A DNA stretch of 64,000 bases from Candidatus Dojkabacteria bacterium (GCA_041750555.1 JBGSZB010000016.1:19725-83724), one strand, 5' to 3'; positions 7,197 to 53,816 are shown, counted from the first letter of the stretch. The notes: a model not told the origin generated them from the letters alone. Program-made: numbers and translations.

Positions 7197-7200
7197 ATAT

Positions 7201-7914: not shown

Positions 7915-8632
7915 GATAACTTGTATAAACCCCTGAGAATATAAAGGCTGTAATAATAGCTACACAAATTAATGCAGTGTAAAGAATTACTAATACATCT
8001 GAGAATTTAACTGCTATTCCTACACTTGCCCATACAATTACCAGGGCATACGCGTAATCTCTAGACTTATACATTGCATAAATAGCTAGAAGCATTGCTA
8101 CAACTATTAATAATGCACTCCAGACTGATCCACTTAAAACTAAAGATTCTATTCCAAAGTAGTTTAAAAATACTGTTACATTAGCAACTGTTGCTACTGT
8201 AATCCAACCTAAATATATTGAGAAGGGTATTTTTACAAAGATATTAAAGTTTCTAGTTGTTGATTTTAAACTATATATACTTGTATATATTTTAATTAAT
8301 ACTAGAAGTAGAGCAAGCATTATAGGTAGAGTTGATGGTATAAAATTATAGTGCCAAAGAATAATCCATAAGCTATTTAATAGACCAGCTAATACTACAT
8401 ACCAAGAAATCTCTTTAAACACTTTATAGTTATTTCTTAACTGATATATTGCAAAAGCTATTAAACCTAAATATATTACTCCCCAGATAGAAAACACATA
8501 ACCTGCGGGAACAAAAAATACACTAAATGAATCTGAAACTTCTGCTGTAGTTACTCCGTTATACGGAATAATATTTGCAAGTAGGTTAATAACTATAGTC
8601 ACAACAACTGATAGGGCAACCACAATTTTCAT
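7898..8632 (-). CDS. TspO/MBR-like tryptophan-rich multi-pass membrane protein
   Basis: FFVPAGYVFSIWGVIYLGLIAFAIY resembles the TspO core; 5-6 TM helices; longer than canonical TspO. Confidence 0.4.
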   Translation of the reverse strand: MKIVVALSVVVTIVINLLANIIPYNGVTTAEVSDSFSVFFVPAGYVFSIWGVIYLGLIAFAIYQLRNNYKVFKEISWYVVLAGLLNSLWIILWHYNFIPSTLPIMLALLLVLIKIYTSIYSLKSTTRNFNIFVKIPFSIYLGWITVATVANVTVFLNYFGIESLVLSGSVWSALLIVVAMLLAIYAMYKSRDYAYALVIVWASVGIAVKFSDVLVILYTALICVAIITAFIFSGVYTSYLKRKG

Positions 8633-8727
8633 ATTTTTTATATAACTACATTAGTCTAAAACTATTTAATAAAGAATTCCAGTATATTTAATATATTTAT
8701 ATATATCTAATTAAATGTACTTAATTT

Positions 8728-8736
8728 TGATATAAT
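8728..8736 (+). promoter_or_regulatory. extended -10 promoter (TGaTATAAT) for tRNA-Arg
   Basis: TGATATAAT ends 7 nt before tRNA position 1. The 13-mer TATAATCACATAT recurs at 34250. Confidence 0.35.
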
Positions 8737-8743
8737 CACATAT

Positions 8744-8818
8744 GCGCCTGTAGCCTAATGGATAGGGCACTTGTCTTCGGAACAAGGTTATGTGGGGGTT
8801 CGACTCCCTCCAGGCGTA
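8744..8818 (+). tRNA. tRNA-Arg (anticodon TCG)
   Basis: Cloverleaf read by eye: acceptor GCGCCTG/CAGGCGT (G1-U72); D-arm GCCTAATGGATAGGGC; anticodon stem CTTGT/ACAAG with loop CTTCGGA; T-arm GGGGGTTCGACTCCCTC; no encoded CCA. Confidence 0.85.
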
Positions 8819-8874
8819 AATACTTCTTGTAAATTAAGAGTTCATATATTACAATTCCAAGCTTAAATATAGTT

Positions 8875-33313: not shown

Positions 33314-33403
33314 GGAGGGGTACCCAAGTGGCTCAAGGGGAGGGTTTGCTAAACCCTTAGTACGGAGTAATCCGTAGCGCAGGTTCGAATCCTGTTCCCT
33401 CCG
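33314..33403 (+). tRNA. tRNA-Ser (anticodon GCT)
   Basis: Acceptor GGAGGGG/TCCCTCC; anticodon stem GGGTT/AACCC with loop TTGCTAA; long variable arm (TTAGTACGGAGTAATCCGTAGC); T-arm GCAGGTTCGAATCCTGT; no encoded CCA. Confidence 0.85.
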
Positions 33404-33433
33404 TATTTTTCTAAAGACAGTTTAATTACCTAA

Positions 33434-34183
33434 ATGAGAAGACCCAGAGAAGATTTGATAGCTATTATAAATGATGCCAACTCATTATTGTACGATTCAT
33501 CAATTTATACAGTACTAGGGACAAATAACCCCTACGATGAGGTTTACGAAAATTTAACTGAAAAGGGATACTATCTTACTGCTTTCTCCGGCATGACGAT
33601 ACTAGGATTTTATTCAAGAATATTTTATATGATAAAACTATTTAAGCCTAAAGTATTATCTCCCAAACAAGTCAATGCACTAAATGAAATAAAGGAAATA
33701 GCTAAAAATAATAAAATTAAAGGACTTTGTTATATAAAAAATCCCGAATCTAATCTAACTAGTGATTTAGATCATTTTAGGAGTTTCATGAAGTACCTAT
33801 TGAATCAAGGATTGGATCTTGGATTAAACTCAAATAATTATGAATCTGCTTGGAAACAGTTTAGAAATACGATCGCTCATCTTGCTTTTCCAGGACTTCC
33901 AATCGGTGGGAAACATATACCTAAAGATGATAAGGATGCAATATTACGACTTGGACTACCTATATATGATGCCGAAAAAGCTTTTGATATACTTAGAAAA
34001 GGATCTAAACCAACAGATACTTTTACTTATACTGACGGTACGCTGCACCTAAACAGTTATGTTCTTATTTCATATATTCCTATAATTAGAAATCACTTAA
34101 TATCTATTGTAAATGATGTAAGTGAAGAGAAATGCCAATTTGCAATAGATGACTTAAAGGAAATCTGGAACAGACAAAAATAA
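33434..34183 (+). CDS. HEPN-like / Abi-like protein (RNxxAH motif)
   Basis: FRNTIAHLAF fits the Rx4-6H HEPN motif in the RNxxAH variant found in Abi_2/Swt1-type HEPN proteins; first gene after tRNA-Ser. Confidence 0.4.
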   Translation: MRRPREDLIAIINDANSLLYDSSIYTVLGTNNPYDEVYENLTEKGYYLTAFSGMTILGFYSRIFYMIKLFKPKVLSPKQVNALNEIKEIAKNNKIKGLCYIKNPESNLTSDLDHFRSFMKYLLNQGLDLGLNSNNYESAWKQFRNTIAHLAFPGLPIGGKHIPKDDKDAILRLGLPIYDAEKAFDILRKGSKPTDTFTYTDGTLHLNSYVLISYIPIIRNHLISIVNDVSEEKCQFAIDDLKEIWNRQK

Positions 34184-34277
34184 GAAATACACAAACAAAA
34201 TGCAATTTAGAAGATATTCTTAATAATTTGACCGGGACAATTTTTGTTTTATAATCACATATATTAATACATATAAC

Positions 34278-35219
34278 ATGACAAAACCTCTTTCAAAATT
34301 GGTTAAAGTAGAACTTAGGGAAGTATGGGGACATGAAGCTATAGATTTTACTAATTGGTTAGCAATGCAAGAGAATTTAGATATTTTAGGCAAAGAGATA
34401 GGAGTTGAGATTAAGCTTATAAAGACAGAGGCAAGTGTGGGTAAATTTAACGTTGATATATTAGCTGAAGAGGAGTCCTCTGGGAGAAAAATAATAATTG
34501 AAAATCAGCTCGAAGATACTAATCACGATCATTTAGGCAAAATTATTACTTATGCTTCAGGATATGACTCAGAAATTATTATATGGATTGTTAAAAATTT
34601 TAGAGACGAGCATAAGAAAGCAATTGAGTGGCTAAACGAGCATACAGATGAATCTATTAACTTCTTTTTAATAAAAGTTGAACTATGGCAAATAGATAAT
34701 TCATATCCAGCTCCAAAGTTCGAAATTATTTCAAATCCCAATGAGTGGGCTAAAGCAATTAAGACCATATCTCTTTCAGGTGAGTTAACGGAGACAAAAT
34801 TACAGCAACTAGGATTTTGGGATAAATTTAAAAATTATGTTAGGGAAAGAGATCAAAATATTAGGTTACAAACACCTCGACCTCAACATTGGTATGATGT
34901 AAGTATGGGAAGTTCTTATGGTCATGTTGCACTTACCTTAAATACTCGGGAGAACTTAATAGGATGTGAGGTCTATATCGATAGGAATAAAGATCTTTAT
35001 AAGTTCTTAATTGAAAAGAAAGAATTAATTGAAAGCGAAATTGGTGAATCTTTGAAGTGGGTCGATGCATCTGTAGCTTCAAGAATTAAAATAAAGAAAA
35101 AGATTTCAAACTTGTTCAATGATAATAGTAACGAAGAAAAATTTAAATGGATGTATGAAAAGACCATTCTTTTCCAAAAAGTTTTTATCAAACACTTTAA
35201 GGAATTTAAAAATGAATAA
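34278..35219 (+). CDS. DUF4268 family protein with N-terminal NucS/PD-(D/E)xK-like nuclease domain
   Basis: VELREVWGHEAIDFTNWL...VGKFNVDILAEEE...IIENQLEDTNHDHLGKIITYASG...EHKKAIEWLNEHT...FFLIKVELWQI is the stereotyped DUF4268 signature. Confidence 0.65.
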   Translation: MTKPLSKLVKVELREVWGHEAIDFTNWLAMQENLDILGKEIGVEIKLIKTEASVGKFNVDILAEEESSGRKIIIENQLEDTNHDHLGKIITYASGYDSEIIIWIVKNFRDEHKKAIEWLNEHTDESINFFLIKVELWQIDNSYPAPKFEIISNPNEWAKAIKTISLSGELTETKLQQLGFWDKFKNYVRERDQNIRLQTPRPQHWYDVSMGSSYGHVALTLNTRENLIGCEVYIDRNKDLYKFLIEKKELIESEIGESLKWVDASVASRIKIKKKISNLFNDNSNEEKFKWMYEKTILFQKVFIKHFKEFKNE

Positions 35220-35220
35220 T

Positions 35221-35760
35221 ATGACAATAGAAATAATCCAAGGTAACAAAGTAACTAATGAAGATTTAGAATTAATTAATAAATATAGAAAGATTAGATT
35301 ATCTAGAGATAGAGTATGGGATCATAAAATAAATAACGAATTCCATGATAGAACATTCTTTCTAGTTAGAGATAATAATCAATTAGTAGCATTTGGTACA
35401 TTAAGAGATATTAAGATATATATAAATGATATAGAAGTAACTATTAAAGGTATACAAGCAATAATATCAATAATACAAGGTATGGGTTATGGTAAATACT
35501 TAATGCAAAACATGATTAAATATGCAATTAATAATAATTTAATATTAATAGGATTTTGTGAAAGAAAGAATAAAGAATTTTATATTAAAAGTGGTTTAGA
35601 AGTATTTGAAGATAAAAACTTAAACTTTATATACATTAATGAAAAACTTGAAGAATATAGTGAAGAGGGAGATGTAATATATTATTCAAAGGAAAATAAC
35701 ATTGTAAGAGAAGCTATAGTTAGTAATATTAAGATTAAACACTTTATTCCCCATTGGTAA
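35221..35760 (+). CDS. GNAT-family N-acetyltransferase
   Basis: IQGMGYGKYLMQ resembles GNAT motif A (Q/RxxGxG/A). The track ORF (35119) overlaps the upstream gene; ATG 35212 or 35221 abuts its stop at 35217-35219. Confidence 0.55.
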   Translation: MTIEIIQGNKVTNEDLELINKYRKIRLSRDRVWDHKINNEFHDRTFFLVRDNNQLVAFGTLRDIKIYINDIEVTIKGIQAIISIIQGMGYGKYLMQNMIKYAINNNLILIGFCERKNKEFYIKSGLEVFEDKNLNFIYINEKLEEYSEEGDVIYYSKENNIVREAIVSNIKIKHFIPHW

Positions 35761-35831
35761 AACTGAATTTGTATTACAATACAATGCAATTATTTAAGAA
35801 TCATTGTATAAATAAATATTTAAATTTACAA

Positions 35832-36611
35832 ATGACCACACTTAGTTTATATATAGATGAGACTGGTAATGATAATCCTTTAAACAAGCAATCTGAATAC
35901 TATATTCTTTGTGGAATAGTTGTGTTAAAAGATAAACAAGAGGATTTAAAAATCTTATCTGATCAAATTAAATTCAAATATTGGAATCGAACTAATATTG
36001 TTTTCCACTCTATAGATATTCAGAGGAATCAAAAAGATTTTATTCTTTTTAATCAAAACCCAACTTTTAAAGATGAATTTTTAAAGGATTTATTCAAACT
36101 TTTGAATAGTGGTCCCTTCAAAATACTCTCCTGTGTAGTTAATAAAGATAAAGCAAGAGAAAAAGGATGGAATAGAGTAAAAGTTTTACAAGAAACATCT
36201 AAGTCACTTTTTAAAAACTATCTTGTACTTTTAACCTCAATTAAAAATACAAATGGAAGAATTATTGTAGAAGCTAGTAGTTCGGAGAAGGATATCTTTT
36301 ACCTAAAAGCCTTAAGTTATTTTTTAACAAATGGTATTTATAGTTTAAAAATAGACTCTTCTATGGTTAGATCTAGATTAACTTCAATTTCATTTGTTTC
36401 TAAGAAAAATAATGACATTGAAGAACAGATAGCTGATTTAATAGCATATGGAATAAAATGTTACCTTGAATATGAAAAAGGGGAAATATTTCATAAAAAC
36501 TCTTATGAATACAAAATCTTACAAGTCGTTAAGTCTAAACTATATTCAAAACCTTCAAACACAAGAAAGAATTTATTAAATGAAGTGAATCCTTTAGAAC
36601 TTATTATATAG
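35832..36611 (+). CDS. DUF3800 domain protein
   Basis: N-terminal LSLYIDETGN, the DUF3800 signature (YIDESG). The track start (TTG 35754) overlaps the GNAT stop; in-frame ATG at 35832. Confidence 0.6.
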   Translation: MTTLSLYIDETGNDNPLNKQSEYYILCGIVVLKDKQEDLKILSDQIKFKYWNRTNIVFHSIDIQRNQKDFILFNQNPTFKDEFLKDLFKLLNSGPFKILSCVVNKDKAREKGWNRVKVLQETSKSLFKNYLVLLTSIKNTNGRIIVEASSSEKDIFYLKALSYFLTNGIYSLKIDSSMVRSRLTSISFVSKKNNDIEEQIADLIAYGIKCYLEYEKGEIFHKNSYEYKILQVVKSKLYSKPSNTRKNLLNEVNPLELII

Positions 36612-36723
36612 ATATAAAAAAACGAGATTGAGCCTAAACGGTCTCGCCCTCGCCTTTTATAAGAATATTATATCACCACAAACTTTTCATTTCAAACAAT
36701 AAAAAATATAATATAATTCACTA

Positions 36724-37461
36724 ATGAACATCCTAGAAAAAATAAAAGATAAATTACTTAAAGATCAGAAATATACAATAGTATTCTTTGGAGATTCAAC
36801 AATTTCTACAGAGTGGGTACATCCTAATACAAGAGAGATAATAGAATATGTATTAAAAGACACGTTAGAAAAGACAATGCAAGATTGGAGACTCCCTAAT
36901 TGGAATATTAGATTTATAAATGCAGCACTAAATGGTGGATCAACTAAAGATTTCTTAAAATATATGGTTAGTGAAATAGATGATTATAAACCAGATATGG
37001 TTATATTAATTGGAGGAGATAATGATTTAGAAGATAATGAAATAATTGATGATATTCATGCTAATAACTTAAATAAAATACTTACATTTCTAAAAAGTAG
37101 AGTAGAGGATGTTGTATATGCAACAGCTCTATACCATGCATTAATACCTAATAGAAATACTAGATATCTAAAGTTTTTAGAAAAGATTAAGAATTTAGAA
37201 ATTCTAAAAAGTATTCACTTTATTAATTTATATGATTTTTTTAACTACGAAGAATCTAATAGATTCTTTACATTTAAATTATCTAAGGAAGAAGCATATT
37301 TATTTAATTTGAGAGAGGGAGATATTGATCCATCACATATGAATCAATTAGGACAAGCATATGTGGCCTCTAGAATATTAAAAGAAATATTTAATATTGA
37401 ATTTGATCCAGAGAAATATATTAAAACTAATAATTTAGGGTATAAATATCCAGAATATTAA
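36724..37461 (+). CDS. SGNH/GDSL-family hydrolase
   Basis: IVFFGDSTIS (block I GDS) and LIGGDNDL (block III). Confidence 0.7.
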   Translation: MNILEKIKDKLLKDQKYTIVFFGDSTISTEWVHPNTREIIEYVLKDTLEKTMQDWRLPNWNIRFINAALNGGSTKDFLKYMVSEIDDYKPDMVILIGGDNDLEDNEIIDDIHANNLNKILTFLKSRVEDVVYATALYHALIPNRNTRYLKFLEKIKNLEILKSIHFINLYDFFNYEESNRFFTFKLSKEEAYLFNLREGDIDPSHMNQLGQAYVASRILKEIFNIEFDPEKYIKTNNLGYKYPEY

Positions 37462-37551
37462 TAATCCCCATTGTTTAACTTCTCTAGAAGCTTAATTCCA
37501 ATTATTACGGATAAGTACTAAAATGTAGATATATTTTTAAAACATATATCT

Positions 37552-37953
37552 ATGAAAAAAGGGTTTTTTGCAAATATAGAGGAATTAACAATAAATAACT
37601 CTAACTTTAGACAAGTACTATACACTGGTAAATACTCCCAATTAGTATTAATGACTTTAAAGCCAGGAGAAGAAATTGGAATGGAAGTACATAATGGAAC
37701 AGATCAATTCTTTAGATTTGAAAGTGGAGAAGGTAAGGTAATTGTAAATGATAGTGAGTATATAGTTACAGATGGAGATTGTGTAGTAATACCAAGTGAT
37801 TGTAGCCATAACGTTATAAATACATCAAGTACAGTAGACTTAAAAATGTATACAATATATTCTCCATCACACCATAAGGATAAAGTAATACATCCAACAA
37901 AAACTGATGCATTAAATGACGATGAAGAGTTTGATAATGTTACCACTGAGTAA
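37552..37953 (+). CDS. cupin-domain protein
   Basis: GEEIGMEVHNGTDQFFRFESGEGKV...GDCVVIPSDCSHNVIN two-motif cupin signature. Confidence 0.7.
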   Translation: MKKGFFANIEELTINNSNFRQVLYTGKYSQLVLMTLKPGEEIGMEVHNGTDQFFRFESGEGKVIVNDSEYIVTDGDCVVIPSDCSHNVINTSSTVDLKMYTIYSPSHHKDKVIHPTKTDALNDDEEFDNVTTE

Positions 37954-37999: not shown

Positions 38000-40900
38000 A
38001 TGAAGATCCTAATAATTGAAAAGGACTTAATAGCGAGGCTTGTTATTAAGAATATAATATACAAAAGCTTAAGTGTTGATAGGAATCAATTAGACATATA
38101 TACAACCCCTAATCCACTACAAGGAATTGGAACATGTTTTGTAATTAATCCAGATATAATAATTTTTGATGAAAAAGAATATATAACTGATGATAAAAGT
38201 ATTAGTGAATATATCTCTTCAAATAAAAATATATTAATTAATTCACCAATAATAATTAAAAACTTCTCTAGATTTACTGAAGATCGTAACTATGTAGAAC
38301 ACTATTCACAATTCTTAGAGGCTAAATTAAAAGAATTTAACTTAAGTAATGGTTTAAAAATAGATACTATTGAAAAAATATTACTTAAGTTACTGTATCC
38401 ATCTAAAAAAGAAAAAAGATATAAGAATAATATTTTAAATAAATCGTATATAGTTTTAAATAACCTTTATTTAGATTTATTAACTGGTGTATATAGATTA
38501 CTTTGGGATAGGAAAGAAATTGAGAGAGATGATTTAACAGTAACTTATGAAAAGAAAACATTTAATCAAAGAATTTATCCTAAGCTATTTATAGCGTCCT
38601 CTATTACTCTATCTATACTTTTAAATGTATCGCTATCTCTTCTTCCAATACTTGGATTAGGATACTTATCACAAAGAGATGCTACAGCTCAGATTACTGA
38701 TAACTGTATAGCTATAGATAAAGACTTTAATCAAGAAATAGGTTTAATAGATTTAGCAAGTATTGCAACTAAATACAATGATGAATGTGTTAATACAAGT
38801 TATCATTGGGGATGTGGTTCTATGGATAGCAATAGTGATAGTAGTGTAGATGTAATAGATTTAGCATATTTAGTTCAAAGATATAATCAAAGTTGTTTTA
38901 AAGGTGGTGAATGGTTTGTTTCAACCACTGGAAGTCCTACAGGAGATGGAAGTATAGATGATCCATGGGATATTGCTACAGGGTTAAATAGTTTTAATAC
39001 AATTCAACCTGGAGATACATTATGGTTAAGAGGTGGAACTTACGGAACTGGAGCGGGAACTATTTATCAAACTAAATTAATAGGTACAGAAGAAAGTCCA
39101 ATCGTTATTAAAAGTTATCCAAATGAATGGGCTGTAATAGATGGAGGAATACAACAAGTAGCGCTATCTGGAGCTGCACATATGTGGTTTTGGGGATTTG
39201 AAGTAACTAATTCAAGTATAGTAAGGCCAATAGATAATGTAAGTGCATTTAGATCTGCAGGATTTGATCTTCATGGTCCTGGTACAAAAGTAATAAATCT
39301 ATATATAAATAATACTGGACATCCCTCTATTGGTTTCTGGGATAGAATTGAAGATGGGGGAGAGGTATATGGGACAGTATCTTGGGGGGCAGGGGTTAGA
39401 GATGATACTCCAGAGTACGGAGGAGCTTGGAGAGGAGCTTCAATTTATGGACAAAACACTATTGGAAATAGAAATATTGAAAACAATATATTCTTTTCTA
39501 ATTCAACTACAGGTTTAAGTACTCACGGTGTTGATGGACATGTTAATAACTTTACATATAGATATAATTCAGTATTTAACAACAACCAAGCTGATTTAAT
39601 AGCCTACAGTACAAATCACGGAGCATCAGGATTAGTAATTGATAATAATAGTTTTTATTCTGAAAGAGGAATGGCTGTAGGAAGTATGCTAATTGGAACT
39701 TTTGGAAATAATTACGATGCAACAATTACAAATAATATAGTTTTTAACCCATACAAAGGAATATATTTTAGAAAATATGAAACAATAAATTTAACTAATA
39801 ACTTAATTATCTCTGATACCGACTTAGTAATTCAAGATAGTTCAGTTACAACATATAACTCAAGTAACAACAAATTTATATCTAGAGGTGGATCAATATT
39901 AAAACTTGATGGTGTAAGTTCAAGAACATTTAGTGCTCTAACTACACATTTATCAGATTCAACCTCAACTTACTCTAGATATATAGATGAAAGCAATAAA
40001 GTACTATTAAAACCTAATAAGTATGAATATGGGAAAGCTCATTTAACTGTATATAACTTTGAAAATAAGATTACTGAGAGCATTAATCCTTCAACTTTTT
40101 TATCGTATGGTGATTACTACATTGTAAGAGATGTACTAGATTACGATAATCCAATAATAAAAGGTAGATATTTAGGTAGTAATATAACTATTCCTCTACA
40201 TCTATATGTTTATCAACCAATTACAGGAACAGTATTTAATGCTAATCATAAGCACTTTGCTCCTATGTTTAATAACTATTCAATAGAGAGAGTAAACTCT
40301 AGTAGTGGGAATAAAGTAAATGCCCCAGTATTAGTGGGAGATCTTGAATACTCAACATCTGTTTATTCTGTAGAATTAACTTCAACTACACCTAATGCCC
40401 TAATATATTACACAACAGATGGAAGTGAACCAACAACATCCAGCACTCTATACTCTGGGGCGTTTAATATCTCAAGCACTGTAGAGATTAAAGCAATAGC
40501 AGTATTAGACGGTTATGAAGATAGTACAAAGGTAAAATACAATATATATAAAATTGATTTAGAGGATGGATTAAAAGGATATTACAAACTAGATGAAGAG
40601 AGTGGTACAACAGTACTAAACTCATCTAACGATCCATCTAAATTCCCTGTAGGTACAACAGTTGGAACAGGTATTGAAAGAATAAGTGGAATTGATGGAG
40701 GTGCATATAGACTAGATGGAGCGGGGAGTTACTTTAACGTGTTATCAGTTTCAGGATTAACAGAAGCTTATTCAATATCAGGGTGGGCAAAATTAAGTGG
40801 TAATTCAGGAACCTTACTAAACATAGGATCAAGTGCATGGAGTACTGTAAACTTTAGATTAACCCTAACAGCATCTACTAATATGGTAAACAATATGACT

Positions 40901-41209
40901 CATTTTCCTGGAGATTTCTCTGGAACTGGAGTAGAAAGTAATAATTGTAACAGTGTAACTGAATGGAACTTTTATACTGTAACTTTTGATGGAACAAGTC
41001 AAAGAATATATTGTAATGGAATATTTAAAAGTATAACAACAAGAGAGGATGGCCCCCTAGTTGCGGGAACCCGAACAACTATGAATGTTGGATTTAATGG
41101 ATTTGACCAATCGTTTACTGGAGATATTGATGAGATAAGGATATATAATAGAACTCTAAACGAAAGAGAGGTTTATTCATTATTTAATCAATTTAAAGAC
41201 CAAATTTAA
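38000..41209 (+). CDS. large surface protein: N-terminal receiver-like domain, TM helix, dockerin-like Cys-bracketed repeats, parallel beta-helix (pectate-lyase fold), chitobiase/hexosaminidase-C-like domain, C-terminal LamG_3 lectin domain
   Basis: MKILIIEKDL...DIIIFDEK receiver-like; TM ~aa 195-215; CIAIDKDFNQEIGLIDLASIATKYNDEC and CGSMDSNSDSSVDVIDLAYLVQRYNQSC; DGSIDDPWDIATGLNSFNTIQPGDTLWLRGGTYG beta-helix start; ALIYYTTDGSEPTTSS; C-terminal DIDEIRIYNRTLNEREV LamG_3 end motif. Confidence 0.75.
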   Translation: MKILIIEKDLIARLVIKNIIYKSLSVDRNQLDIYTTPNPLQGIGTCFVINPDIIIFDEKEYITDDKSISEYISSNKNILINSPIIIKNFSRFTEDRNYVEHYSQFLEAKLKEFNLSNGLKIDTIEKILLKLLYPSKKEKRYKNNILNKSYIVLNNLYLDLLTGVYRLLWDRKEIERDDLTVTYEKKTFNQRIYPKLFIASSITLSILLNVSLSLLPILGLGYLSQRDATAQITDNCIAIDKDFNQEIGLIDLASIATKYNDECVNTSYHWGCGSMDSNSDSSVDVIDLAYLVQRYNQSCFKGGEWFVSTTGSPTGDGSIDDPWDIATGLNSFNTIQPGDTLWLRGGTYGTGAGTIYQTKLIGTEESPIVIKSYPNEWAVIDGGIQQVALSGAAHMWFWGFEVTNSSIVRPIDNVSAFRSAGFDLHGPGTKVINLYINNTGHPSIGFWDRIEDGGEVYGTVSWGAGVRDDTPEYGGAWRGASIYGQNTIGNRNIENNIFFSNSTTGLSTHGVDGHVNNFTYRYNSVFNNNQADLIAYSTNHGASGLVIDNNSFYSERGMAVGSMLIGTFGNNYDATITNNIVFNPYKGIYFRKYETINLTNNLIISDTDLVIQDSSVTTYNSSNNKFISRGGSILKLDGVSSRTFSALTTHLSDSTSTYSRYIDESNKVLLKPNKYEYGKAHLTVYNFENKITESINPSTFLSYGDYYIVRDVLDYDNPIIKGRYLGSNITIPLHLYVYQPITGTVFNANHKHFAPMFNNYSIERVNSSSGNKVNAPVLVGDLEYSTSVYSVELTSTTPNALIYYTTDGSEPTTSSTLYSGAFNISSTVEIKAIAVLDGYEDSTKVKYNIYKIDLEDGLKGYYKLDEESGTTVLNSSNDPSKFPVGTTVGTGIERISGIDGGAYRLDGAGSYFNVLSVSGLTEAYSISGWAKLSGNSGTLLNIGSSAWSTVNFRLTLTASTNMVNNMTHFPGDFSGTGVESNNCNSVTEWNFYTVTFDGTSQRIYCNGIFKSITTREDGPLVAGTRTTMNVGFNGFDQSFTGDIDEIRIYNRTLNEREVYSLFNQFKDQI

Positions 41210-41277: not shown

Positions 41278-41829
41278 ATGTATCCATATATAATTTTAAA
41301 GATAGAAAACTATATACCACATTTATACTTAAGAACTTCAGAAACTTTAGAAACTCAAATTGAAGACGAAGATATTAGTTTATTAGATACCGTATTAGAA
41401 TTAGGAGAAAAATTAAACTTGAGTGATTCTAACTTAGATTCTAAATCTCAATATAACTATCTCATAAATTTAGCTAGAGAACATGATGAGACATATGCAA
41501 CAAGTAATAGTGATATTGATAATACAACTTTTTTTAGATTGAAAGAGTATTTAGATAGATTTTTAGAAGAGAATAAAGTAGAGCCCCTATACCTTGATGT
41601 AGAAGTTAGTGATGAAATTAGAGATCAATTAAATAGAGAACAAGGTGCAGATTTATTAGCTAGTATATTAGACTATATCTATACAATATTAATAGCTAAA
41701 AGCGTTATAGCTGCATCCGAAATGGGAATAGGTGTTATACATTTAAATGATGAAACTAAAAACAGTAGACTTCAAGAAAAAATGGCAATGGAGTTAGAAA
41801 AAATTGATGTTGAGTTAATAATAGATTAA
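41278..41829 (+). CDS. hypothetical acidic protein
   Basis: 183 aa, D/E-rich, no motif recognised. Confidence 0.4.
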   Translation: MYPYIILKIENYIPHLYLRTSETLETQIEDEDISLLDTVLELGEKLNLSDSNLDSKSQYNYLINLAREHDETYATSNSDIDNTTFFRLKEYLDRFLEENKVEPLYLDVEVSDEIRDQLNREQGADLLASILDYIYTILIAKSVIAASEMGIGVIHLNDETKNSRLQEKMAMELEKIDVELIID

Positions 41830-43098: not shown

Positions 43099-44067
43099 AT
43101 GAAAAAGAATAATTTAATTAGTGTAATTATTACAGCCTTTAGAGAAGAAGCTACTATTGGAAAAGCTATTGAATGTATAGCAAATCCTGAGTATTCAGGA
43201 ATACCTGATGATTATGAAATAATATTAGCTGCTCCAGATAAAGAAACTCATAATGTAGCAACCCTTAAAGCAAGGGAATTAAATATTGAAGATAAATTAA
43301 TTCATGTTTATGACCCAGGTAAAGCAGAGGGCAAGGGGAAACCAACTGCCTTAAATATGGCCCTAGATATCGCAAAAGGGAGCATTTTAATATTTACTGA
43401 TGGAGATGTACATTTAGGTAAATTTGCCCTTAAAAGGCTTCTTAAACACTTTAGAAATCCTAGTGTAATGTTAGTAACTGGAAGACCAGTATCTAGTGAT
43501 TCTAAGAGTACTTTAATGGGATATTTTGGTAATTTATTAGCTGATGCAGCTCATCATAAAAGAACAATAGATTTAACAGATAACCCAGAAGGTTTAAGTT
43601 TAAAGCTTGTTAGGAAAAGAGCATTCTTTCCAGTTTCTGGATATGTATATGCTATGAGAAAAAATGATATTCGTTTTCCTGAAGATTGTTTAGTTGATGA
43701 TGCATATATCTCATATATGATTTTTAATATGGGGGGTAGAATTGAGTATGAACCAAGAGCTCTAGCATATGTTAAGTATCCAACTAATTTATCTGACTAT
43801 TTTAAACAAAAGAAAAGATCAACTGGTGGATATATGCAGTTATGGGAGTATGGTATTGTTAAAAAAAGTACTAAAACTAGATCATTCTGGAGAGAGTTAG
43901 AGTATGTTTGGTTTCCCCTAAGATACTCTAAAAATATTAAACAATTATTCTTTTCATTCTTAATGTATCCAATTAGATTATGGTTATGGATTCAAATATA
44001 TTGGGAGAGAAAGGTTGTTAAGAAAAACTTTGTTAAAACTTGGGTTAGAGTTGAAAGTACTAAATAG
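43099..44067 (+). CDS. family 2 glycosyltransferase
   Basis: ISVIITAFREEATIGKAI N-terminus; FTDGDVHL DxD motif; C-terminal hydrophobic/W-rich segment. Confidence 0.75.
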   Translation: MKKNNLISVIITAFREEATIGKAIECIANPEYSGIPDDYEIILAAPDKETHNVATLKARELNIEDKLIHVYDPGKAEGKGKPTALNMALDIAKGSILIFTDGDVHLGKFALKRLLKHFRNPSVMLVTGRPVSSDSKSTLMGYFGNLLADAAHHKRTIDLTDNPEGLSLKLVRKRAFFPVSGYVYAMRKNDIRFPEDCLVDDAYISYMIFNMGGRIEYEPRALAYVKYPTNLSDYFKQKKRSTGGYMQLWEYGIVKKSTKTRSFWRELEYVWFPLRYSKNIKQLFFSFLMYPIRLWLWIQIYWERKVVKKNFVKTWVRVESTK

Positions 44068-46563: not shown

Positions 46564-46954
46564 AAAGTTCTTTTAATGGTTTAAAGTAATATTCTTCCCA
46601 ACCATCCTTAATATCATCAGCATACATTTCAGGAATATTGTTATGAGTTAAAGTTAACTTAGTAACATTATCACCTAAATCTTCAAATTCAATAGTAACT
46701 TCAGAATAAAAATCACTTGGCCAATCCTCATAATCATATCTCCATTTCTGAACAATCTTTAATGGAGGTTCTAATTCCTCTGTTACTCCTGTAATACTAC
46801 CTCCCCATAAACTAAATTCACCTTCTTCTGTGGCATCAACTACTGCTTCATCATTAATTAAATCAGAATGTTTCTCTGCATCCATAAAAGTATCATAAAG
46901 TTCTTGTGGAGTAGTATCTAGCTTAAGGGTTAACAATATATCTTTAGTCTTCAT
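46553..46954 (-). CDS. SRPBCC / AHSA1 (activator of Hsp90 ATPase)-like protein
   Basis: 133 aa; overall SRPBCC pattern (PQELYDTFMD ... VTKLTLTHNNIPE ... EGWEEYYFKPLKEL). Confidence 0.6.
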   Translation of the reverse strand: MKTKDILLTLKLDTTPQELYDTFMDAEKHSDLINDEAVVDATEEGEFSLWGGSITGVTEELEPPLKIVQKWRYDYEDWPSDFYSEVTIEFEDLGDNVTKLTLTHNNIPEMYADDIKDGWEEYYFKPLKELYGS

Positions 46955-47915
46955 TTTTTAAGGATAAAATATAAAAGTTGTATTTATCAGATTTAGATTC
47001 ATTTAAAATATTAAAGCCTGTCTTATCTAACATCTCTTTAAAGTAAAGAAATGGTGTTTCTTTACTAAAGTATTCTAATTCATTTTTACCTTTTATTAAA
47101 ACATTCCAAACTTCTTTAATTTCTAAACTCTCTTTAAAGTTAATTAATACTATACCCTTATCTCTAATTATCCTTTTAACTTCCATTAAATACTTATATT
47201 CACTCTCTAAAGGTATAAATTGCCAATAAGAATTAATAATAATTAAATCAAAGCTATTATCTTTAAATGTATTCTTTAATAAATCTTTAACAATTATCTT
47301 TCCCTTAATTAATGTCTTTAAGTCTAAAGTTAACTCCCTAGAGATTTCAATAATATTAAATTTTAATTTATGTTTCTTTTCTACCTCTTTATTTAATTCA
47401 TTAATACCCTCATTAATCTCTTTAAAACTTGGTATTGGCCCTATACTTAATATATTAATATTGTTTGAGTTTAGGGATATTAATGCACTAATTAAATTAG
47501 TTAATGTTTCTTTTGATAATATCCCTATACTTTTATCTAATAAATTGCTCTTTAACTGATCTCTAAACTTTGACATCTTTTTAATTACAAATGAGTATTC
47601 AAAGTTTTTTTTATCAATAGCCTTTTTATTCTCTTCTCTTAATTGTTTTAATTTCCATAAAAACACTCTTCCTTTAAATTCTGATGTTGAGTCAATTGCA
47701 TATGAGTAAGCTCTCTCCATTACTGATCTATCAATATTTTTAGCTAATTTCATATATATTCCTAAATGATCAGGGTCATTTAAATCTTTAGATAACTTAT
47801 ATGCAAATGCTTGAAATTCTTTAGAGGCATGTCGTCTTCCCTTAGACGCTTTTACATCTTCAATGTCTAATATATTAATATTTGTTAGTATTGATTTAGC
47901 TGATACAAATGCCAT
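46944..47915 (-). CDS. putative class I SAM-dependent methyltransferase with long N-terminal extension
   Basis: C-terminal FDLIIINSYWQFIP...KRIIRDKGIVLINF resembles methyltransferase motifs II-III. Confidence 0.45.
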   Translation of the reverse strand: MAFVSAKSILTNINILDIEDVKASKGRRHASKEFQAFAYKLSKDLNDPDHLGIYMKLAKNIDRSVMERAYSYAIDSTSEFKGRVFLWKLKQLREENKKAIDKKNFEYSFVIKKMSKFRDQLKSNLLDKSIGILSKETLTNLISALISLNSNNINILSIGPIPSFKEINEGINELNKEVEKKHKLKFNIIEISRELTLDLKTLIKGKIIVKDLLKNTFKDNSFDLIIINSYWQFIPLESEYKYLMEVKRIIRDKGIVLINFKESLEIKEVWNVLIKGKNELEYFSKETPFLYFKEMLDKTGFNILNESKSDKYNFYILSLKNED

Positions 47916-47976: not shown

Positions 47977-49482
47977 TTAATCTAATTCCTTAGCTAAGTT
48001 ATTAGCCATAGCAGTTAACCTATAGCTACTAAAGAATACAAACAATGTTTTTTTATTCTCCCCTAAATTAACTGTATACTTATCCTTTAAAAGACTAGGT
48101 AACGTTTCTGTTTTAGAAAACATTGCATTAAACCCTAAGTTATTTAATTGTGTAACCATATTTTCTCCATCAATTAATTCACTATTACTAGTTGATAACT
48201 CAGGGATAATTACTAAGTTACTGTAATTAAATGATTCTTTATACATTTTATTAAACAATTCTAAATTAGATGGTCTACTACCACTATTAGGTTCATAAAT
48301 ACCAATAATTTCAAAATCATTAAAATTATCTTTTAATGTTTTTAAACTATTAAAAGCTCTTTCAGGAGTTACTCCAAAGTCATCAATTATTACTAAATTA
48401 CTACTTACCTTTAATTTCTGTAATCTCTTTTTAGGACCTTTAAATGTATTAATACTTGTTTTTAAGAATTCTGAATTATTAATTAATTTTCTATCTAAAC
48501 TAGATTTAAGAGCTGGTACTTCATTAATTAAAATATATGAAGCTAATATATTTTCTAAATTGTAATCTCCCAAAAGTATTGTTTCTGATTCAAATACTAG
48601 TTCTTTAAGAGGATTATATATTTGAAATTTTGTATCTCCATTCTCGTTTTTACTATCTTTAACAATTGTATATATCCCATCAACTAAGTTATTAACATTT
48701 TCTACAAATTTGTATCTTATTACCCTTACTTTATTTATATTACTTTCTAATACCTTTTCAATATTTAAGTCACCATCATGAGCTATTATTAATCCATTGC
48801 TCGGGATAATCTTTACACATTTAGCAAATTCTTCAATGTATCGTTCTTCTGTGGGAAATATATCTTGATGTTCCCAACTAACTTTAGTGATTAATAAATA
48901 TTTAGGTTTGTATTGAAGAAATTTAGCACCTTTAGATAATACTGGGTTATGGTATTCATCACCCTCAAGTACTGACCAATTAGAATCTGTATTTCCTATT
49001 GATTCTTCAAAATCAATAACATCTGCTCCAATCATATAGCTTGGATTTAAATCTAAATCTTTAAGTATTTTTGTAATTAAAGTAGTAGTTGTTGTTTTAC
49101 CTGCTGTTCCAATTACAACAATTGATTCATCTTTAACTAAATAATCGTGTAATATTTCACTAAAAGGCCTAACATCAAGTCCAAGTTTTTTAGCATATAA
49201 ATATTCTTTGTTCTTATCAGTTACTGATTCTACAAGTAGTAACAGGTCTGGGTGATTAGGTATATCAAGAGATTTATTTAACTTCTTTTCCCAAAATTCT
49301 TTATCTAAATGGTAGTAGATATAATCTAAATCAAAAGGGATGTCATTATTTTTAATAATATCACTAGCAGGAGCTATAAATTGTGAATCACTACCTGTAA
49401 CAAACCAACCCATATCTTTAAACATTTTACATACATTTGCAGTTGTTTTACCACTAGCTCCAATTGCATGAAACCATTTCAT
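47977..49482 (-). CDS. Mur ligase family (MurC/Mpl-like UDP-N-acetylmuramate ligase)
   Basis: HAIGASGKTT N-terminal nucleotide motif; central GTAGKTTTTTLI P-loop; 501 aa. Confidence 0.75.
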   Translation of the reverse strand: MKWFHAIGASGKTTANVCKMFKDMGWFVTGSDSQFIAPASDIIKNNDIPFDLDYIYYHLDKEFWEKKLNKSLDIPNHPDLLLLVESVTDKNKEYLYAKKLGLDVRPFSEILHDYLVKDESIVVIGTAGKTTTTTLITKILKDLDLNPSYMIGADVIDFEESIGNTDSNWSVLEGDEYHNPVLSKGAKFLQYKPKYLLITKVSWEHQDIFPTEERYIEEFAKCVKIIPSNGLIIAHDGDLNIEKVLESNINKVRVIRYKFVENVNNLVDGIYTIVKDSKNENGDTKFQIYNPLKELVFESETILLGDYNLENILASYILINEVPALKSSLDRKLINNSEFLKTSINTFKGPKKRLQKLKVSSNLVIIDDFGVTPERAFNSLKTLKDNFNDFEIIGIYEPNSGSRPSNLELFNKMYKESFNYSNLVIIPELSTSNSELIDGENMVTQLNNLGFNAMFSKTETLPSLLKDKYTVNLGENKKTLFVFFSSYRLTAMANNLAKELD

Positions 49483-50189: not shown

Positions 50190-53100
50190 ATGGCAATAGA
50201 AGCTGTTATTACTAACAAAGATTACTCAACTAGACTTAAAAAAAATATTGGAACTAAAGGACTTAAGATTGAAAGAGTATTTACAAAGAAAGGTAGTGAT
50301 AGGTATGAAGGCATTGAATTTGATTTAAGAGATTCAAGGATATCTAACCCTGATGGATCAACAGTCTTTGAAATGAAGGATGTTGAAGTACCACTTGAAT
50401 GGAGTCAAATTGCAACAGATATATTAGTTCAAAAATATTTTAGAAAGAAAGGTGTTCCTCAAAAGGATAGAAATGGAAATGTATTAAAAGATAAATCAGG
50501 GGAGGCAATATTAGGTAGTGAAAAAAGCGCTAAAGAAACAATTAATAGATTAGCTCTAGCTTGGAGATGGTGGGGTGAACAATATGGATACTTTAATTCA
50601 AAAGATGATGCAGATAGCTTTGAGGATGAATTAGCATATATATTAATGAAACAGATTGCAGCTCCAAATAGTCCTCAATGGTTTAATACAGGATTAAACT
50701 TAGCTTATGGAATAAATGGTAAAGCTCAAGGACACTGGTATGTTGATCCAGAAACAAAAAAATCTAAATTATCTGAAGATGCATATACAAGAGGACAACC
50801 TCATGCATGTTTTATACTTTCTATTGAAGATGATTTAGTAAATGAAGGCGGAATTTTTGATGTATTAAAAACTGAAGCTAGAATATTTAAATATGGATCA
50901 GGAACTGGAACTAACTTTTCTTCTATTAGAGCTAGTAATGAGACATTATCAGGAGGAGGAATCTCTAGTGGATTAATGAGTTTTTTAAAAATATTTGATG
51001 CAGGAGCAGGAGCTATTAAATCTGGAGGGACTACACGAAGAGCTGCTAAAATGGTTACTCTAGATATGGATCACCCAGAAATTGAACAATTTATTGTTTG
51101 GAAAGCAAGAGAGGAACAAAAGGTAGCAGCATTAGTTACAGGTTCCTACATTAACTACGATCATTTAAAACGAATAATGTTATCTGCAGAAACTAATGGT
51201 ATTGATCCAGTTAAAAATCCAGGATTAAAAAAATTAATAAATCAAGCTAAGTTAGATTATGTACCAGAAAACTACATTAAAAGAATATTAATGTTGGTTG
51301 AAAATGGAATTAAAAGTGAAGATTTTACTTTTGAAAGATATGATACAGATTTTAGATCTGAAGCATATTATACAGTTTCAGGACAAAATTCTAACAACTC
51401 AATTAGAGTTACTAATGAATTTTTTGAAGCCCTAAAAAATGATAGTGATTGGAATTTAATAAATAGAACTAACAGGGAAGTTTCTAAAACATTAAAAGCT
51501 AGATATTTATGGAATAAAGTTATTGAATCAGCATGGCAAAGTGCTGATCCTGGAGTTCAATATGATACAACTATTAATGAATGGCATACATGTCCAAGCG
51601 ACGGCAGAATTAATGCATCTAATCCATGTTCAGAATATATGTTTTTAGATAATACTGCATGTAACTTAGCTTCAATTAATTTAGTAAAATTTTATAATCC
51701 AGAAACTGGAGTATTTGATGTAGAAAGTTATAAACATGTTATTAGATTATTTACTATTGTATTAGAGATCTCTGTATTATCAGCTCATCTACCAACTAAA
51801 TCTGTTGCTGAAAGAACTTACCTTTATAGAACATTAGGATTAGGATATGCAAATATTGGAGCACTTTTAATGCAACAAGGTGTAGCTTATGAGAGTGAAA
51901 AAGGTTATGCAATAACTGGAGCCTTAACTTCAATTATGTGTGGAGAATCATATGCAACTTCTGCAGAAATGGCAAAAGTATTAGGTACTTTTGATAAATA
52001 CGAAGATAACAAAGATTCTATGCTTAGAGTTATTAGAAACCATAGAAGAGCATCATATAACACTCCTGATAGTGATTACGAAGATTTAACAATTAAACCT
52101 CAAGGTATTAATTCTAGTTTAATTGATGCAAGTTTGGGATATAACGCTATGGCTTCTTGGGATTACGCTTTAAAAATGGGAGAAGAGTTTGGATATAGAA
52201 ATGCACAAGTAACTGTTATTGCTCCAACTGGGACAATAGGCTTAGTTATGGATTGCGATACTACAGGTATTGAACCTGATTTTGCTGTTGTTAAATTTAA
52301 AAAATTAGTTGGGGGTGGATACTTTAAGATTGTTAATCAATCAATAAGACCAGCTCTTAAAAACTTAGGGTATTCTGAAACCGAAATAAATGATATTGAA
52401 AAATATATTATTGGAACTCCAAGTATTAAAGATTCTCCATATATTAATTTTGAAAGTTTAAAAGCTAAAGGCTTTACCGAAAAAGAACTAACAATTATTG
52501 AAAACAACTTAGAGAATGCATATAACTTAAGTAGTGTATTTTCTAAATGGAACCTAGGTGAAGACTTTCTTAAAAATACTTTAAAGTTAAGTAATGAGGA
52601 TATTAATTCTTCTAACTTATTAAAAAGTTTAGGGTTTAGTAATGAACAAATTGAATTAGCTGAAGAGTATGTTTGTGGAGCAATGACAATTGAAGGAGCT
52701 CCTCATTTAAAGCTTGAACATTATTCTGTTTTTGATTGTGCTAATAAATGTGGTAAAAAAGGAAAAAGATATATCTCTACAATGGGTCATTTAAGACAGA
52801 TGGCTGCAGCTCAACCTTTTATTAGTGGAGCTATTAGTAAAACTGTAAATTTACCTGAAGAAGCGACCTTAGAAGATATAGATGAAGCATATGTTAAAGG
52901 ATGGGAGTTAATGTTAAAAGCAAATGCACTTTACAGAGATTCTTCAAAATTAAGTCAACCACTAAATACTTCTAGTGATTCTAAATATGCTGAGTTATTT
53001 AATTTCAAAGAGGAGGACATTAAAGAAGAGGTAAGTTTAATTCAAATGCAAAAGGCTATTAAAGAAGAAGTTAGTGCACCAAGAAGAAGAAGATTACCTG

Positions 53101-53816
53101 AAGAGAGACATAGTCTTACACATAAGTTTAGTGTTGCAGGTCATGAAGGATATATTACTGTAGGACTATTTGAAGAAGGTACTCCCGGAGAAGTCTTTAT
53201 TACAATGAGTACTGCAGGAAGTTTCTTATCTGGAATTATGGATGCATTAGCTGTAAGTTTATCTCTTAATTTACAATATGGAGTGCCCCTAGAAGCTATT
53301 GTTAGAAAGTTAACTAGTACTAAATTTGAACCATCTGGCATGACTTCAAACAAAGAAATACCATTAGTTAAATCTATTACTGACTACATTGGTAGATGGT
53401 TAGGATTAAAGTTCTTACCTGCAGAAAAAGCTAAACTTTATCATAATGAAGAGTTAGTTGAAAGATCATATAGGGAGGGTAGTAATTTTAGAATTTTAAT
53501 TCCATATGTAAATGGAAGTGGTCATACCGAGGTTAAATCTAGACAAATCTTACACATTAATGAAGAGGAGAGTATAAAGGTTGTAGAAGTTCAAGCGATA
53601 ACTCAAGCTGAACCTTCTCAAATGACTTTAGATCATACTAAACCATTAGAAGATTTAAATGACTCTAAGATTGATTCAATAGGAGATAAGATTAGAATTG
53701 CTAAAGAAAAAGGTTTTACAGGAGAGATGTGTAGTAACTGTGGTAGTATGAATGTGAAACAAAACGGTAGTTGTACTGTATGTGCTGATTGTGGTACTAC
53801 TACTGGTTGTAGTTAA
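50190..53816 (+). CDS. nrdJ: adenosylcobalamin-dependent (class II) ribonucleotide reductase, long form
   Basis: Class II RNR motifs (NPCSEYMFLD-NTACNLASINL, ISKTVNLP); C-terminal Cys-rich zinc ribbon CSNCGS...CTVCADCG; 1208 aa. Confidence 0.9.
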   Translation: MAIEAVITNKDYSTRLKKNIGTKGLKIERVFTKKGSDRYEGIEFDLRDSRISNPDGSTVFEMKDVEVPLEWSQIATDILVQKYFRKKGVPQKDRNGNVLKDKSGEAILGSEKSAKETINRLALAWRWWGEQYGYFNSKDDADSFEDELAYILMKQIAAPNSPQWFNTGLNLAYGINGKAQGHWYVDPETKKSKLSEDAYTRGQPHACFILSIEDDLVNEGGIFDVLKTEARIFKYGSGTGTNFSSIRASNETLSGGGISSGLMSFLKIFDAGAGAIKSGGTTRRAAKMVTLDMDHPEIEQFIVWKAREEQKVAALVTGSYINYDHLKRIMLSAETNGIDPVKNPGLKKLINQAKLDYVPENYIKRILMLVENGIKSEDFTFERYDTDFRSEAYYTVSGQNSNNSIRVTNEFFEALKNDSDWNLINRTNREVSKTLKARYLWNKVIESAWQSADPGVQYDTTINEWHTCPSDGRINASNPCSEYMFLDNTACNLASINLVKFYNPETGVFDVESYKHVIRLFTIVLEISVLSAHLPTKSVAERTYLYRTLGLGYANIGALLMQQGVAYESEKGYAITGALTSIMCGESYATSAEMAKVLGTFDKYEDNKDSMLRVIRNHRRASYNTPDSDYEDLTIKPQGINSSLIDASLGYNAMASWDYALKMGEEFGYRNAQVTVIAPTGTIGLVMDCDTTGIEPDFAVVKFKKLVGGGYFKIVNQSIRPALKNLGYSETEINDIEKYIIGTPSIKDSPYINFESLKAKGFTEKELTIIENNLENAYNLSSVFSKWNLGEDFLKNTLKLSNEDINSSNLLKSLGFSNEQIELAEEYVCGAMTIEGAPHLKLEHYSVFDCANKCGKKGKRYISTMGHLRQMAAAQPFISGAISKTVNLPEEATLEDIDEAYVKGWELMLKANALYRDSSKLSQPLNTSSDSKYAELFNFKEEDIKEEVSLIQMQKAIKEEVSAPRRRRLPEERHSLTHKFSVAGHEGYITVGLFEEGTPGEVFITMSTAGSFLSGIMDALAVSLSLNLQYGVPLEAIVRKLTSTKFEPSGMTSNKEIPLVKSITDYIGRWLGLKFLPAEKAKLYHNEELVERSYREGSNFRILIPYVNGSGHTEVKSRQILHINEEESIKVVEVQAITQAEPSQMTLDHTKPLEDLNDSKIDSIGDKIRIAKEKGFTGEMCSNCGSMNVKQNGSCTVCADCGTTTGCS

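Follow-up and report, generated by a model that had tools for sequence, protein, structure and literature searches.

A leader cassette with a degenerate receiver and a transmembrane helix on a predicted surface glycan protein of a Dojkabacteria bacterium

The reading frame and its receiver-like N-terminus

The window analyzed in this study, meaning the whole stretch of 64,000 nucleotides from Candidatus Dojkabacteria bacterium (GCA_041750555.1 JBGSZB010000016.1:19725-83724), is gene-dense and has 28.5% G+C. At 38000-41209 on the plus strand it carries an open reading frame (ORF) that starts with ATG and encodes 1069 amino acids (aa), as placed by a reading made earlier from the sequence alone (the sequence-only reading). 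The product begins with a receiver (REC)-like domain, continues through a helical linker and a single transmembrane (TM) helix, and ends in a large, predicted extracellular part. Homology indicates that residues 1-230 are a conserved leader cassette of many Patescibacteria surface proteins and not a one-off fusion.

The ORF is real and coding throughout. At the base composition of the window, a stop-free run over the first 190 codons has a probability of ~8e-8, and these codons gave a log-likelihood of 0.47 per codon in frame versus -1.8 and -1.9 in the other frames; a chance ORF was therefore rejected for this part. Normal 190-codon chunks score 0.67 +/- 0.13, which places the N-terminal part at the low end. 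Over aa 1-190, G+C at third codon positions (GC3) is typical of the genome, and GC3 and the frame signal are uniform across the junction with the downstream part; G+C at first and second positions (GC1 and GC2) lies below that of normal genes, and the composition has drifted to I/K/N. NCBI also records this 1069-aa protein from a contig of 94 kb. The sequence-only reading had considered that the true start codon might lie downstream of the receiver-like region. No in-frame ATG, GTG, or TTG was found between codons 2 and 224, and a downstream start was rejected because no further canonical start codon precedes the TM helix, which is itself part of the cassette. A Shine-Dalgarno-like motif within -20 to -3 is absent in 45 of 50 window genes (ORFs of at least 150 aa); since the genome thus lacks the motif in general, it is uninformative for the choice of start, and initiation in the source genome is apparently independent of it. 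The stop codons of the window (TAA 45, TAG 12, TGA 3) conform to the standard code.

Residues 1 to ~115 (38000-38344, plus strand) represent a degenerate receiver, as judged from family homology and an AlphaFold2 (AF2) model. This agrees with the sequence-only reading for the first ~120 aa, although no Pfam or NCBIfam model detects it. Pfam Response_reg (PF00072; gathering score 30.2 bits) gave no match in aa 1-200 or in the full protein even at E<=10, NCBIfam gave none in aa 1-200, and the sole return of phmmer with aa 1-200 against PDB sequences was a spurious viral polymerase (E 1.3). A word-indexed protein search with aa 1-230 returned nothing and missed the protein itself though it is in the database, so this null is unreliable; low-complexity, I/K/N-rich queries can give false negatives in such searches. 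With the family alignment as query, the word-indexed search gave only 3 matches. An exhaustive phmmer search of 1.84 billion representatives with aa 1-230 returned the protein itself and eight weak matches (E 9e-6 to 9e-4) that align to query residues 2 to ~100 or, in one case (P0037), to 2-225. All eight carry an N-terminal Pfam Response_reg domain covering model positions 1 to ~80 of 111; these relatives (P0030-P0037) score 27-40 bits, seven of the eight above the cut-off. Several are 1500-2000 aa long, with Ig-like, CarboxypepD_reg, SpaA or DUF4403 domains, and most of the long ones have a TM segment and extracellular domains. A hidden Markov model (HMM) of 26 family sequences, from which the query was left out, recovered ORF 38000-41209 at E 4e-14 and matched nothing else in a six-frame translation of the window. 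By hhalign, the query aligned with the 19-member full-length alignment over 213 columns (query 1-216; 98.7% probability, E 3.7e-16), and the family profile matches 55 solved REC domains (best E 3.7e-8). The link of aa 1 to ~115 to receivers is thus transitive through the family, and structural. The AF2 model predicts the order beta1-alpha1-beta2-alpha2-beta3-alpha3-beta4-helix, and its structural matches include FrzS. The CheY-like fold proposed for residues 1-130 may thus be retained in part, with beta5 absent from the prediction and a predicted local distance difference test score (pLDDT) of 62-65 at aa 60-100; the modelling alignment consisted of REC-containing relatives.

Residue by residue, the window receiver keeps the core of the family and loses most of its phosphorylation site. 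R13, G42, G44, P51, and D57 are invariant with the family, and D57, which lies in 'IIIFDE' at the phospho-acceptor position at the C-terminal end of beta3, is kept in all 27 aligned sequences, the window copy included. The acidic pair reads E7-K8-D9 versus D-D-[D/N] in the family, and the loop after beta3 reads D-E-K-E-Y-I-T-D-D versus D-T-T-L-P-K-Y-S-G. Between beta4 and beta5, 10-16 residues are deleted. The T/S position at the end of beta4, anchored by the family profile against solved REC domains ('IIVLhe' versus 'IIVLSA'), holds Lys or a gap, and the beta5-Lys position holds Thr or a gap in a locally uncertain alignment, with K107 and K109 nearby. The E-K-D triplet and the Asp of IIFDE named in the sequence-only reading thus correspond to E7-K8-D9 and D57; of the phosphorylation residues whose conservation it put in question, the Asp is kept and the T and K positions are lost in the window copy. 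A pseudo-receiver (PsR) is defined as a receiver homologue that misses at least one of the DD, D, T, and K residues; such domains are widespread, and they work by conformation or by binding proteins (PMC12632262). Since only D57 of the phosphorylation residues is kept, with E7-K8 in place of the acidic pair, T and K lost, and the beta4-beta5 segment deleted, the residue pattern classifies the window receiver as a pseudo-receiver under this definition, albeit not an aspartate-less one. With K8 replacing a Mg-binding Asp, and with T, K, the beta3-alpha3 loop, and part of alpha4/beta5 lost, canonical Asp phosphorylation appears unlikely in this copy. The retention of D57 and core residues, together with near-average coding potential, indicates that the domain is not simply junk.

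The membrane segment and the cassette family

Behind the receiver lie a cytoplasmic helical linker (aa 116-144) and an amphipathic helix, H1 (aa 145-172; both within 38345-38515, plus strand), delimited by AF2 secondary structure, hydropathy, and hhalign. H1 was rejected as a membrane-spanning helix in the window protein: its Kyte-Doolittle (KD) hydropathy is 1.05, versus 1.6-2.3 in most family members, and it has K/R-rich flanks on both sides. Most family members show two hydrophobic segments, with H1 positively charged on both flanks, so that H1 is probably interfacial. Next comes a charged, K/R-rich juxtamembrane loop (38516-38584, plus strand) with the motif Q-R-I-Y-P at aa 190-194, assigned from family alignments and flank charges; the R, Y, and P columns of the motif R-x-x-x-Y-P are invariant or nearly so in the family, and the K/R-rich character places the loop in the cytoplasm. 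The single TM helix or signal anchor spans aa 196-224 (38585-38671, plus strand). It reaches a 19-residue KD value (KD19) of 2.08, is the only segment of the whole protein with KD19 of at least 1.6, and aligns with both the family TM helix and the signal anchor of P0002, a homologue described below. The flanks hold four K/R residues on the N-side versus one on the C-side, indicating an N-in/C-out orientation; the single TM helix foreseen in the sequence-only reading is thereby borne out. Its mid-helix polar residue is Asn, where the family has a conserved Gln. The cassette ends at A228-T229-A230 (38681-38689, plus strand), a small-x-Ala motif resembling a signal peptidase I site, with A230 exactly +36 from YP194. 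An Ala at +36 to +38 from YP was found by regular expression in 18 of 20 members, and the two missed (L005, VFA; L013, MFA) have the fixed Ala by eye; the -3 residue before it is V, A, I, S, T or L in the family. Signal peptidase possibly cleaves after A230.

Family alignments give a constant order of REC, helical linker, H1, K/R-rich loop, TM helix, and fixed Ala. The family REC has D-D-[D/N], an invariant Arg in alpha1, G-x-x-G-x-G, the invariant beta3 stretch P-[D/E/N]-x-I-I-I-D-T-T-L-P-K-Y-S-G, beta4 as I-I-V-L-[T/S/H/N], a short beta4-beta5 connection, and a beta5 Lys. The linker carries an N-x-x-D motif and H1 a conserved Gln; the loop, rich in D/E as well as K/R, reads N-I-x-Q-x-x-x-D-x-x-x-[F/Y]-R-x-[R/K]-x-Y-P; the TM helix is ~27-30 residues long with a central Gln. 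The fixed Ala has the form of a signal peptidase I site and marks the point where the family sequences diverge. Among 26 members, the first acidic position is D/E in all and the second is D in 23 and N in 3; the phospho-acceptor D and each of T, L, P, Y, and G of the beta3 loop are present in 26/26, and the beta5 K in 25/26. The T position, counted by eye, is T/S in 10/26, H in 8, and N in 3. About 10 of the 26 thus have the full quintet, and the rest vary only at the T position. Response_reg is detected at E<=1e-4 in 15 of 19 full-length members. This near-invariant phospho-acceptor pocket (DD, D, the DTTLPKYSG loop, and K) makes control by phosphorylation plausible for the family; for the window copy it is unlikely.

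A genome scan with one conserved peptide pattern revealed 18 loci that carry the cassette, in metagenome-assembled genomes (MAGs) labelled Dojkabacteria, Doudnabacteria, and 'Saccharibacteria', with one labelled Synechococcus that is probably mislabelled. Many ORFs are longer than 2000 aa or continue past the end of the fetched locus, and their extracellular domains vary (CarboxypepD_reg, Beta_helix/NosD, LamG_3, DUF2341, DUF4403, Big_7/13). A census of 86 neighbour genes, taken at 15 family loci, showed neither a histidine kinase nor any other partner that recurs. We found no description of REC-TM-surface proteins in the Candidate Phyla Radiation (CPR) in the searchable literature; the searches yielded a brief mention of CheY-like domains in giant proteins and an archaeal response-regulator output domain that is membrane-anchored. 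The closest concepts are such rare archaeal outputs and the inside-out control of adhesins by LapD, both compared below. With its near-invariant phospho-acceptor pocket, the cassette family is a more interesting object than the window copy, and it is apparently undescribed.

Several family loci deviate from this pattern. L018 is the only one with a histidine kinase and a response regulator in its vicinity; at 7017-8820 (minus strand) it has an H-box kinase of 369 aa with an adjoining 240-aa ORF, ~3 kb from a short cassette gene. Short stand-alone cassettes of 143-255 aa occur at L020 (5986-6714), L003 (793-1560), and L018 (3704-4261, identical to P0030), and as P0033 and P0040; they consist of REC, linker, and H1 with or without the TM helix, ending at or before it, and could be either genuine small membrane-tethered receivers or truncated remnants. 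At L006, a 623-aa cassette protein is directly followed by an ORF of more than 1600 aa in the same orientation, and the pair may be a split giant gene.

The extracellular part and the origin of the fusion

The part beyond the membrane opens with two Cys-bracketed, Ca-loop-like repeats of dockerin/EF-hand type (C236-C263 and C272-C299; 38705-38896, plus strand), kept in the orthologue P0002. The dockerin-like repeats of the sequence-only reading hold up by eye as two such loops of the form D-x-N/D-x-D, but the Pfam evidence falls short: Dockerin_1 (PF00404) matches one repeat below threshold (E 0.029, 15 bits versus a cut-off of 22.9). A genuine C-terminal Dockerin_1 is present in the homologue P0003 (E 5e-8). 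Residues ~301-650 (38900-39949, plus strand) are predicted to form a right-handed parallel beta-helix of pectate-lyase type, assigned by AF2, Foldseek, and profile search, followed at aa ~651-777 (39950-40330, plus strand) by a beta-sandwich with a conserved 'RPNKYE.GKA' motif, whose strands occupy residues 357-465 of the AF2 model and which is kept in P0002-P0005. The model of aa 301-777, comprising the beta-helix and then the beta-sandwich, has a pLDDT of 84 and a predicted template modelling score (pTM) of 0.88. Foldseek matched the beta-helix to Pel9A (1ru4, E 1.5e-6), PL6 alginate lyases, GH120 XylC, and GH136 lacto-N-biosidase, all at E 1.5e-6 to 1e-4 with probability 1.0; rhamnogalacturonan lyase, the adhesin PfbA, and phage tailspikes were also matched. 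Its N-terminal cap has a weak profile match to the PL6 lyase 6qps (E 1.7e-4). No Pfam beta-helix family matches the window protein. Precomputed Pfam annotation assigns Pel9A-like_beta_helix or Beta_helix to homologues; scanned directly, they yielded a single Pel9A-like match, on P0003 and below threshold (E 0.019). The C-terminal modules are CHB_HEX_C_1/Fn3_assoc at aa 789-843 (40364-40528, plus strand; Pfam E 1.4e-17 and 2.7e-16, 63.8 and 59.8 bits versus cut-offs of 22 and 23) and Laminin_G_3, a concanavalin-A-like lectin/glucanase domain, at aa 907-1058 (40718-41173, plus strand; E 4e-15, 56.7 bits versus 27.6). The beta-helix, chitobiase-C-like, and LamG_3 assignments made from the sequence alone are thus confirmed, the latter two above Pfam gathering scores. 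As accessory domains, LamG and CHB_HEX_C are characteristic of secreted proteins active on glycans. The modelled extracellular part may bind or cleave polysaccharide, as either an enzyme or a lectin/adhesin; we keep both readings.

The closest orthologue of this part is P0002/P0025, 883 aa long and 40% identical over query 215-1069. Its very N-terminus is a hydrophobic signal anchor; other homologues have ordinary signal peptides there. A divergent GT2 gene is located 85 nt upstream of P0025, and no REC gene was found on that side, although a cassette gene, L017, is present at another place in this assembly. The P0025 locus shares microsynteny with the window in the GT2 gene (43099-44067 in the window, 50% identity) and a Mur-ligase-like gene (47977-49482). 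Cassette homology ends at about aa 216-230 and P0002 homology begins at 215-235, so the borders meet at aa 215-235 and place the junction at the cleavage-like Ala. Because P0002/P0025 makes do with a plain signal anchor, the cassette is probably a graft. In the Dojkabacteria locus L020, homologues of window genes 41278-41829 and 46944-47915 are preceded by a REC-TM gene of 242 aa that stands alone. Taken at their simplest, these borders and gene orders suggest that, in the window lineage, a resident cassette became fused to a beta-helix/LamG ORF. Two metagenome scans found no closer orthologue with a cassette, only P0002-like and more distant beta-helix proteins.

The gene at 41278-41829 (plus strand; L020 7855-8433) encodes a conserved protein of 183-192 aa with 37% identity and no Pfam match, located downstream of the cassette gene in both the window and the Dojkabacteria MAG L020. 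A second large surface protein (2961-7196, plus strand; 1411 aa) contains DUF2341, LamG_3, Pur_ac_phosph_N, and fn3 domains and no REC cassette; parts of its extracellular region are ~30% identical to the giant cassette proteins of L008 and L004. Next to it, a 237-aa CarboxypepD_reg protein (7201-7914, plus strand) resembles part of the L007 giant protein, and the two suggest mosaic shuffling of surface modules. Immediately upstream of ORF 38000-41209, the region 33314-37953 holds tRNA-Ser(GCT) followed by hypothetical, DUF4268, GNAT, DUF3800, GDSL lipase, and cupin genes; this accessory-type run may be an island that entered the genome at the tRNA. Further downstream, a class II (B12-dependent) ribonucleotide reductase of 1208 aa (50190-53816, plus strand) has its barrel domain matched in two stretches and a C-terminal TSCPD; its length suggests an insertion such as an intein.

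Interpretation and comparison with known systems

On the homology, architecture, residue losses, predicted fold, and topology signals established above, we consider with moderate confidence that the window protein is an N-in/C-out surface glycan protein whose cassette leader carries a receiver decayed to a pseudo-receiver and serves mainly for insertion and anchoring. The product would be a type-II-oriented surface protein of an ultra-small, low-GC, Patescibacteria-like bacterium, in which the Ca-loop repeats, beta-helix, beta-sandwich, CHB_HEX_C, and LamG_3 would bind or cleave polysaccharide outside the cell, and a cassette of ~230 aa would act as the export and anchor signal instead of a simple signal peptide. 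After the cassette was joined to the beta-helix/LamG ORF, the receiver would have decayed; the remaining function would most likely be membrane targeting and anchoring, possibly with cleavage after A230, and the residual CheY-like fold would be a cytoplasmic scaffold, docking module, dimerisation stub or vestige. Of the two functions proposed in the sequence-only reading, a pseudo-receiver scaffold is favoured here, and the coupling of intracellular signalling to the surface module less so.

Several points weigh against this interpretation. The evidence for the receiver fold is not independent of homology, as AF2 was guided by REC-bearing relatives. D57 and several core residues are kept and the coding potential is only slightly below average, so that non-canonical signalling could occur. 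The searches found no close orthologue of the same fusion against which purifying selection on the REC part of the window protein could be measured. The kinase search, which found no H-box ORF in the 64-kb window by regular expression and no second REC by the family HMM, covered just these 64 kb of the genome and used a crude H-box pattern. Finally, cleavage is putative: a signal peptide would usually have a shorter hydrophobic segment, and between this segment and the Ala stands a basic residue.

A domain that still signals independently of phosphorylation, as a conformational or docking module of FrzS type, is unlikely, although it ranks first among the alternatives. It would recruit cytoplasmic partners, localise the protein (to a pole or a host-contact site), or report an extracellular ligand inward. 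The predicted CheY-like fold with FrzS among its structural matches, the five residues invariant with the family, the in-frame coding signal with genome-typical GC3, and the reported prevalence of pseudo-receivers that act by conformation or protein binding (PMC12632262) are all in its favour. However, no partner was found among the neighbours and no same-fusion orthologue demonstrates constraint, and the drift to I/K/N with lowered GC1 and GC2 is consistent with relaxed selection. Less likely still is an active phospho-switch, in which D57 would be phosphorylated by a kinase or a small-molecule phosphodonor for inside-out signalling, and a change in REC conformation or dimerisation would pass through H1 and the TM helix to alter the display, clustering, release or activity of the extracellular module. 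D57 is present, E7 could supply one acidic ligand, the conserved juxtamembrane loop and the polar mid-TM residue could transmit a signal, and the near-invariant family pocket argues that phosphorylation chemistry matters for the cassette generally. Against these stand K8 at the position of a Mg2+-ligand Asp, the loss of T/S and Lys, the replaced beta3-alpha3 loop, the deletion of 10-16 residues, the absence of a Response_reg match even at E<=10, and the negative searches for an H-box ORF or second REC in 64 kb and for a recurrent kinase at 15 family loci. An annotation or assembly artefact, with the first ~190 codons a remnant of an upstream gene or a chimeric join and the true start near the TM helix, is highly improbable: the closest orthologue does start at its hydrophobic segment, the N-terminal coding potential is at the low end, and short stand-alone REC-TM genes exist (L020, L003, P0030), but codons 2-224 offer no in-frame ATG, GTG or TTG, the TM helix and the RxxYP/+36-Ala register belong to the cassette and not to the P0002-type anchor, so that without the N-terminus no export signal would be left, neither GC3 nor the frame signal changes across the junction, the 1069-aa protein is also recorded from the 94-kb contig, and the same continuous architecture recurs in many independent MAGs.

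Apart from the decayed window copy, a broader and tentative proposal, which we regard as rather unlikely at present, is that proteins headed by the REC-TM cassette make up a new class of response regulators with an extracellular 'output', in which phosphorylation gates the export, release, clustering or conformation of giant surface proteins and of which the window protein is a decayed offshoot. Few signalling modules have been studied as well as receiver domains, which nearly always act on cytoplasmic outputs. Patescibacteria spend their lives attached to host cells, and their regulators are very few. A conserved receiver and TM cassette heads diverse surface proteins of this group, many of them giant; if the intact members are phospho-regulated, a cytoplasmic signal would be coupled directly and cheaply to surface display or adhesin release. 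Should the extracellular-output proposal hold, it would amount to post-translational two-component control of host attachment in Patescibacteria episymbionts, and the window protein would document the shuffling of the cassette onto new surface modules. The few Patescibacteria that can be cultured and genetically manipulated would allow a test of phospho-regulation. The window copy itself suggests that the cassette is modular, having been grafted onto a beta-helix/LamG protein that has a plain signal anchor elsewhere, and that the leader can stay functional when its receiver decays. In annotating genomes, N-terminal extensions of this kind are best kept and not cut off as wrongly called starts.

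Among known systems, the fold of aa ~301-650 is shared with PL9 Pel9A, PL6, GH120, GH136, tailspikes, and PfbA at a sequence identity of 9-14%, with no CAZy family assignable. Compared with CheY-like receivers (PF00072; DivK, Spo0F, CheY), the window domain has no PF00072 match and lacks the second acid, T/S, K, and a predicted beta5. The output of CheY-like response regulators is cytoplasmic, either DNA-binding or enzymatic, whereas the 'output' in the window protein lies across the membrane, outside the cell. Pseudo-receivers (PMC12632262) are a further parallel, with FrzS among the structural matches; known PsRs, however, are soluble or reside in cytoplasmic regulators and kinases, while that of the window is TM-tethered to an extracellular glycan module and, unlike them, comes from a family whose other members look phosphorylatable. 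A related concept is the LapD/LapG c-di-GMP system (PMC3032553), in which signalling in the cytoplasm governs, across the membrane, what becomes of a large surface adhesin. LapD, with its degenerate GGDEF/EAL domains, is a receptor distinct from the adhesin and works by way of a periplasmic protease (PMC3032553), whereas the cassette has its REC fused in cis and shows no homology to it. The archaeal MetOD3 (PMC5847659) resembles the cassette in placing a REC before a membrane-anchored region and in being rare and lineage-specific; it occurs in methanogens, no large extracellular carbohydrate-binding or adhesin domains have been reported for it (PMC5847659), and the likeness is drawn by description only. 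As leaders, the extended signal peptide region (ESPR) of autotransporters and two-partner secretion (TPS) proteins, YSIRK signal peptides, and type II anchors likewise combine a positive flank, a hydrophobic helix, and a small-x-Ala motif. Leaders of the ESPR/YSIRK type are also modular N-terminal elements on diverse large surface proteins. They add about 20-30 residues. The cassette adds about 195 residues, including a folded signalling domain.

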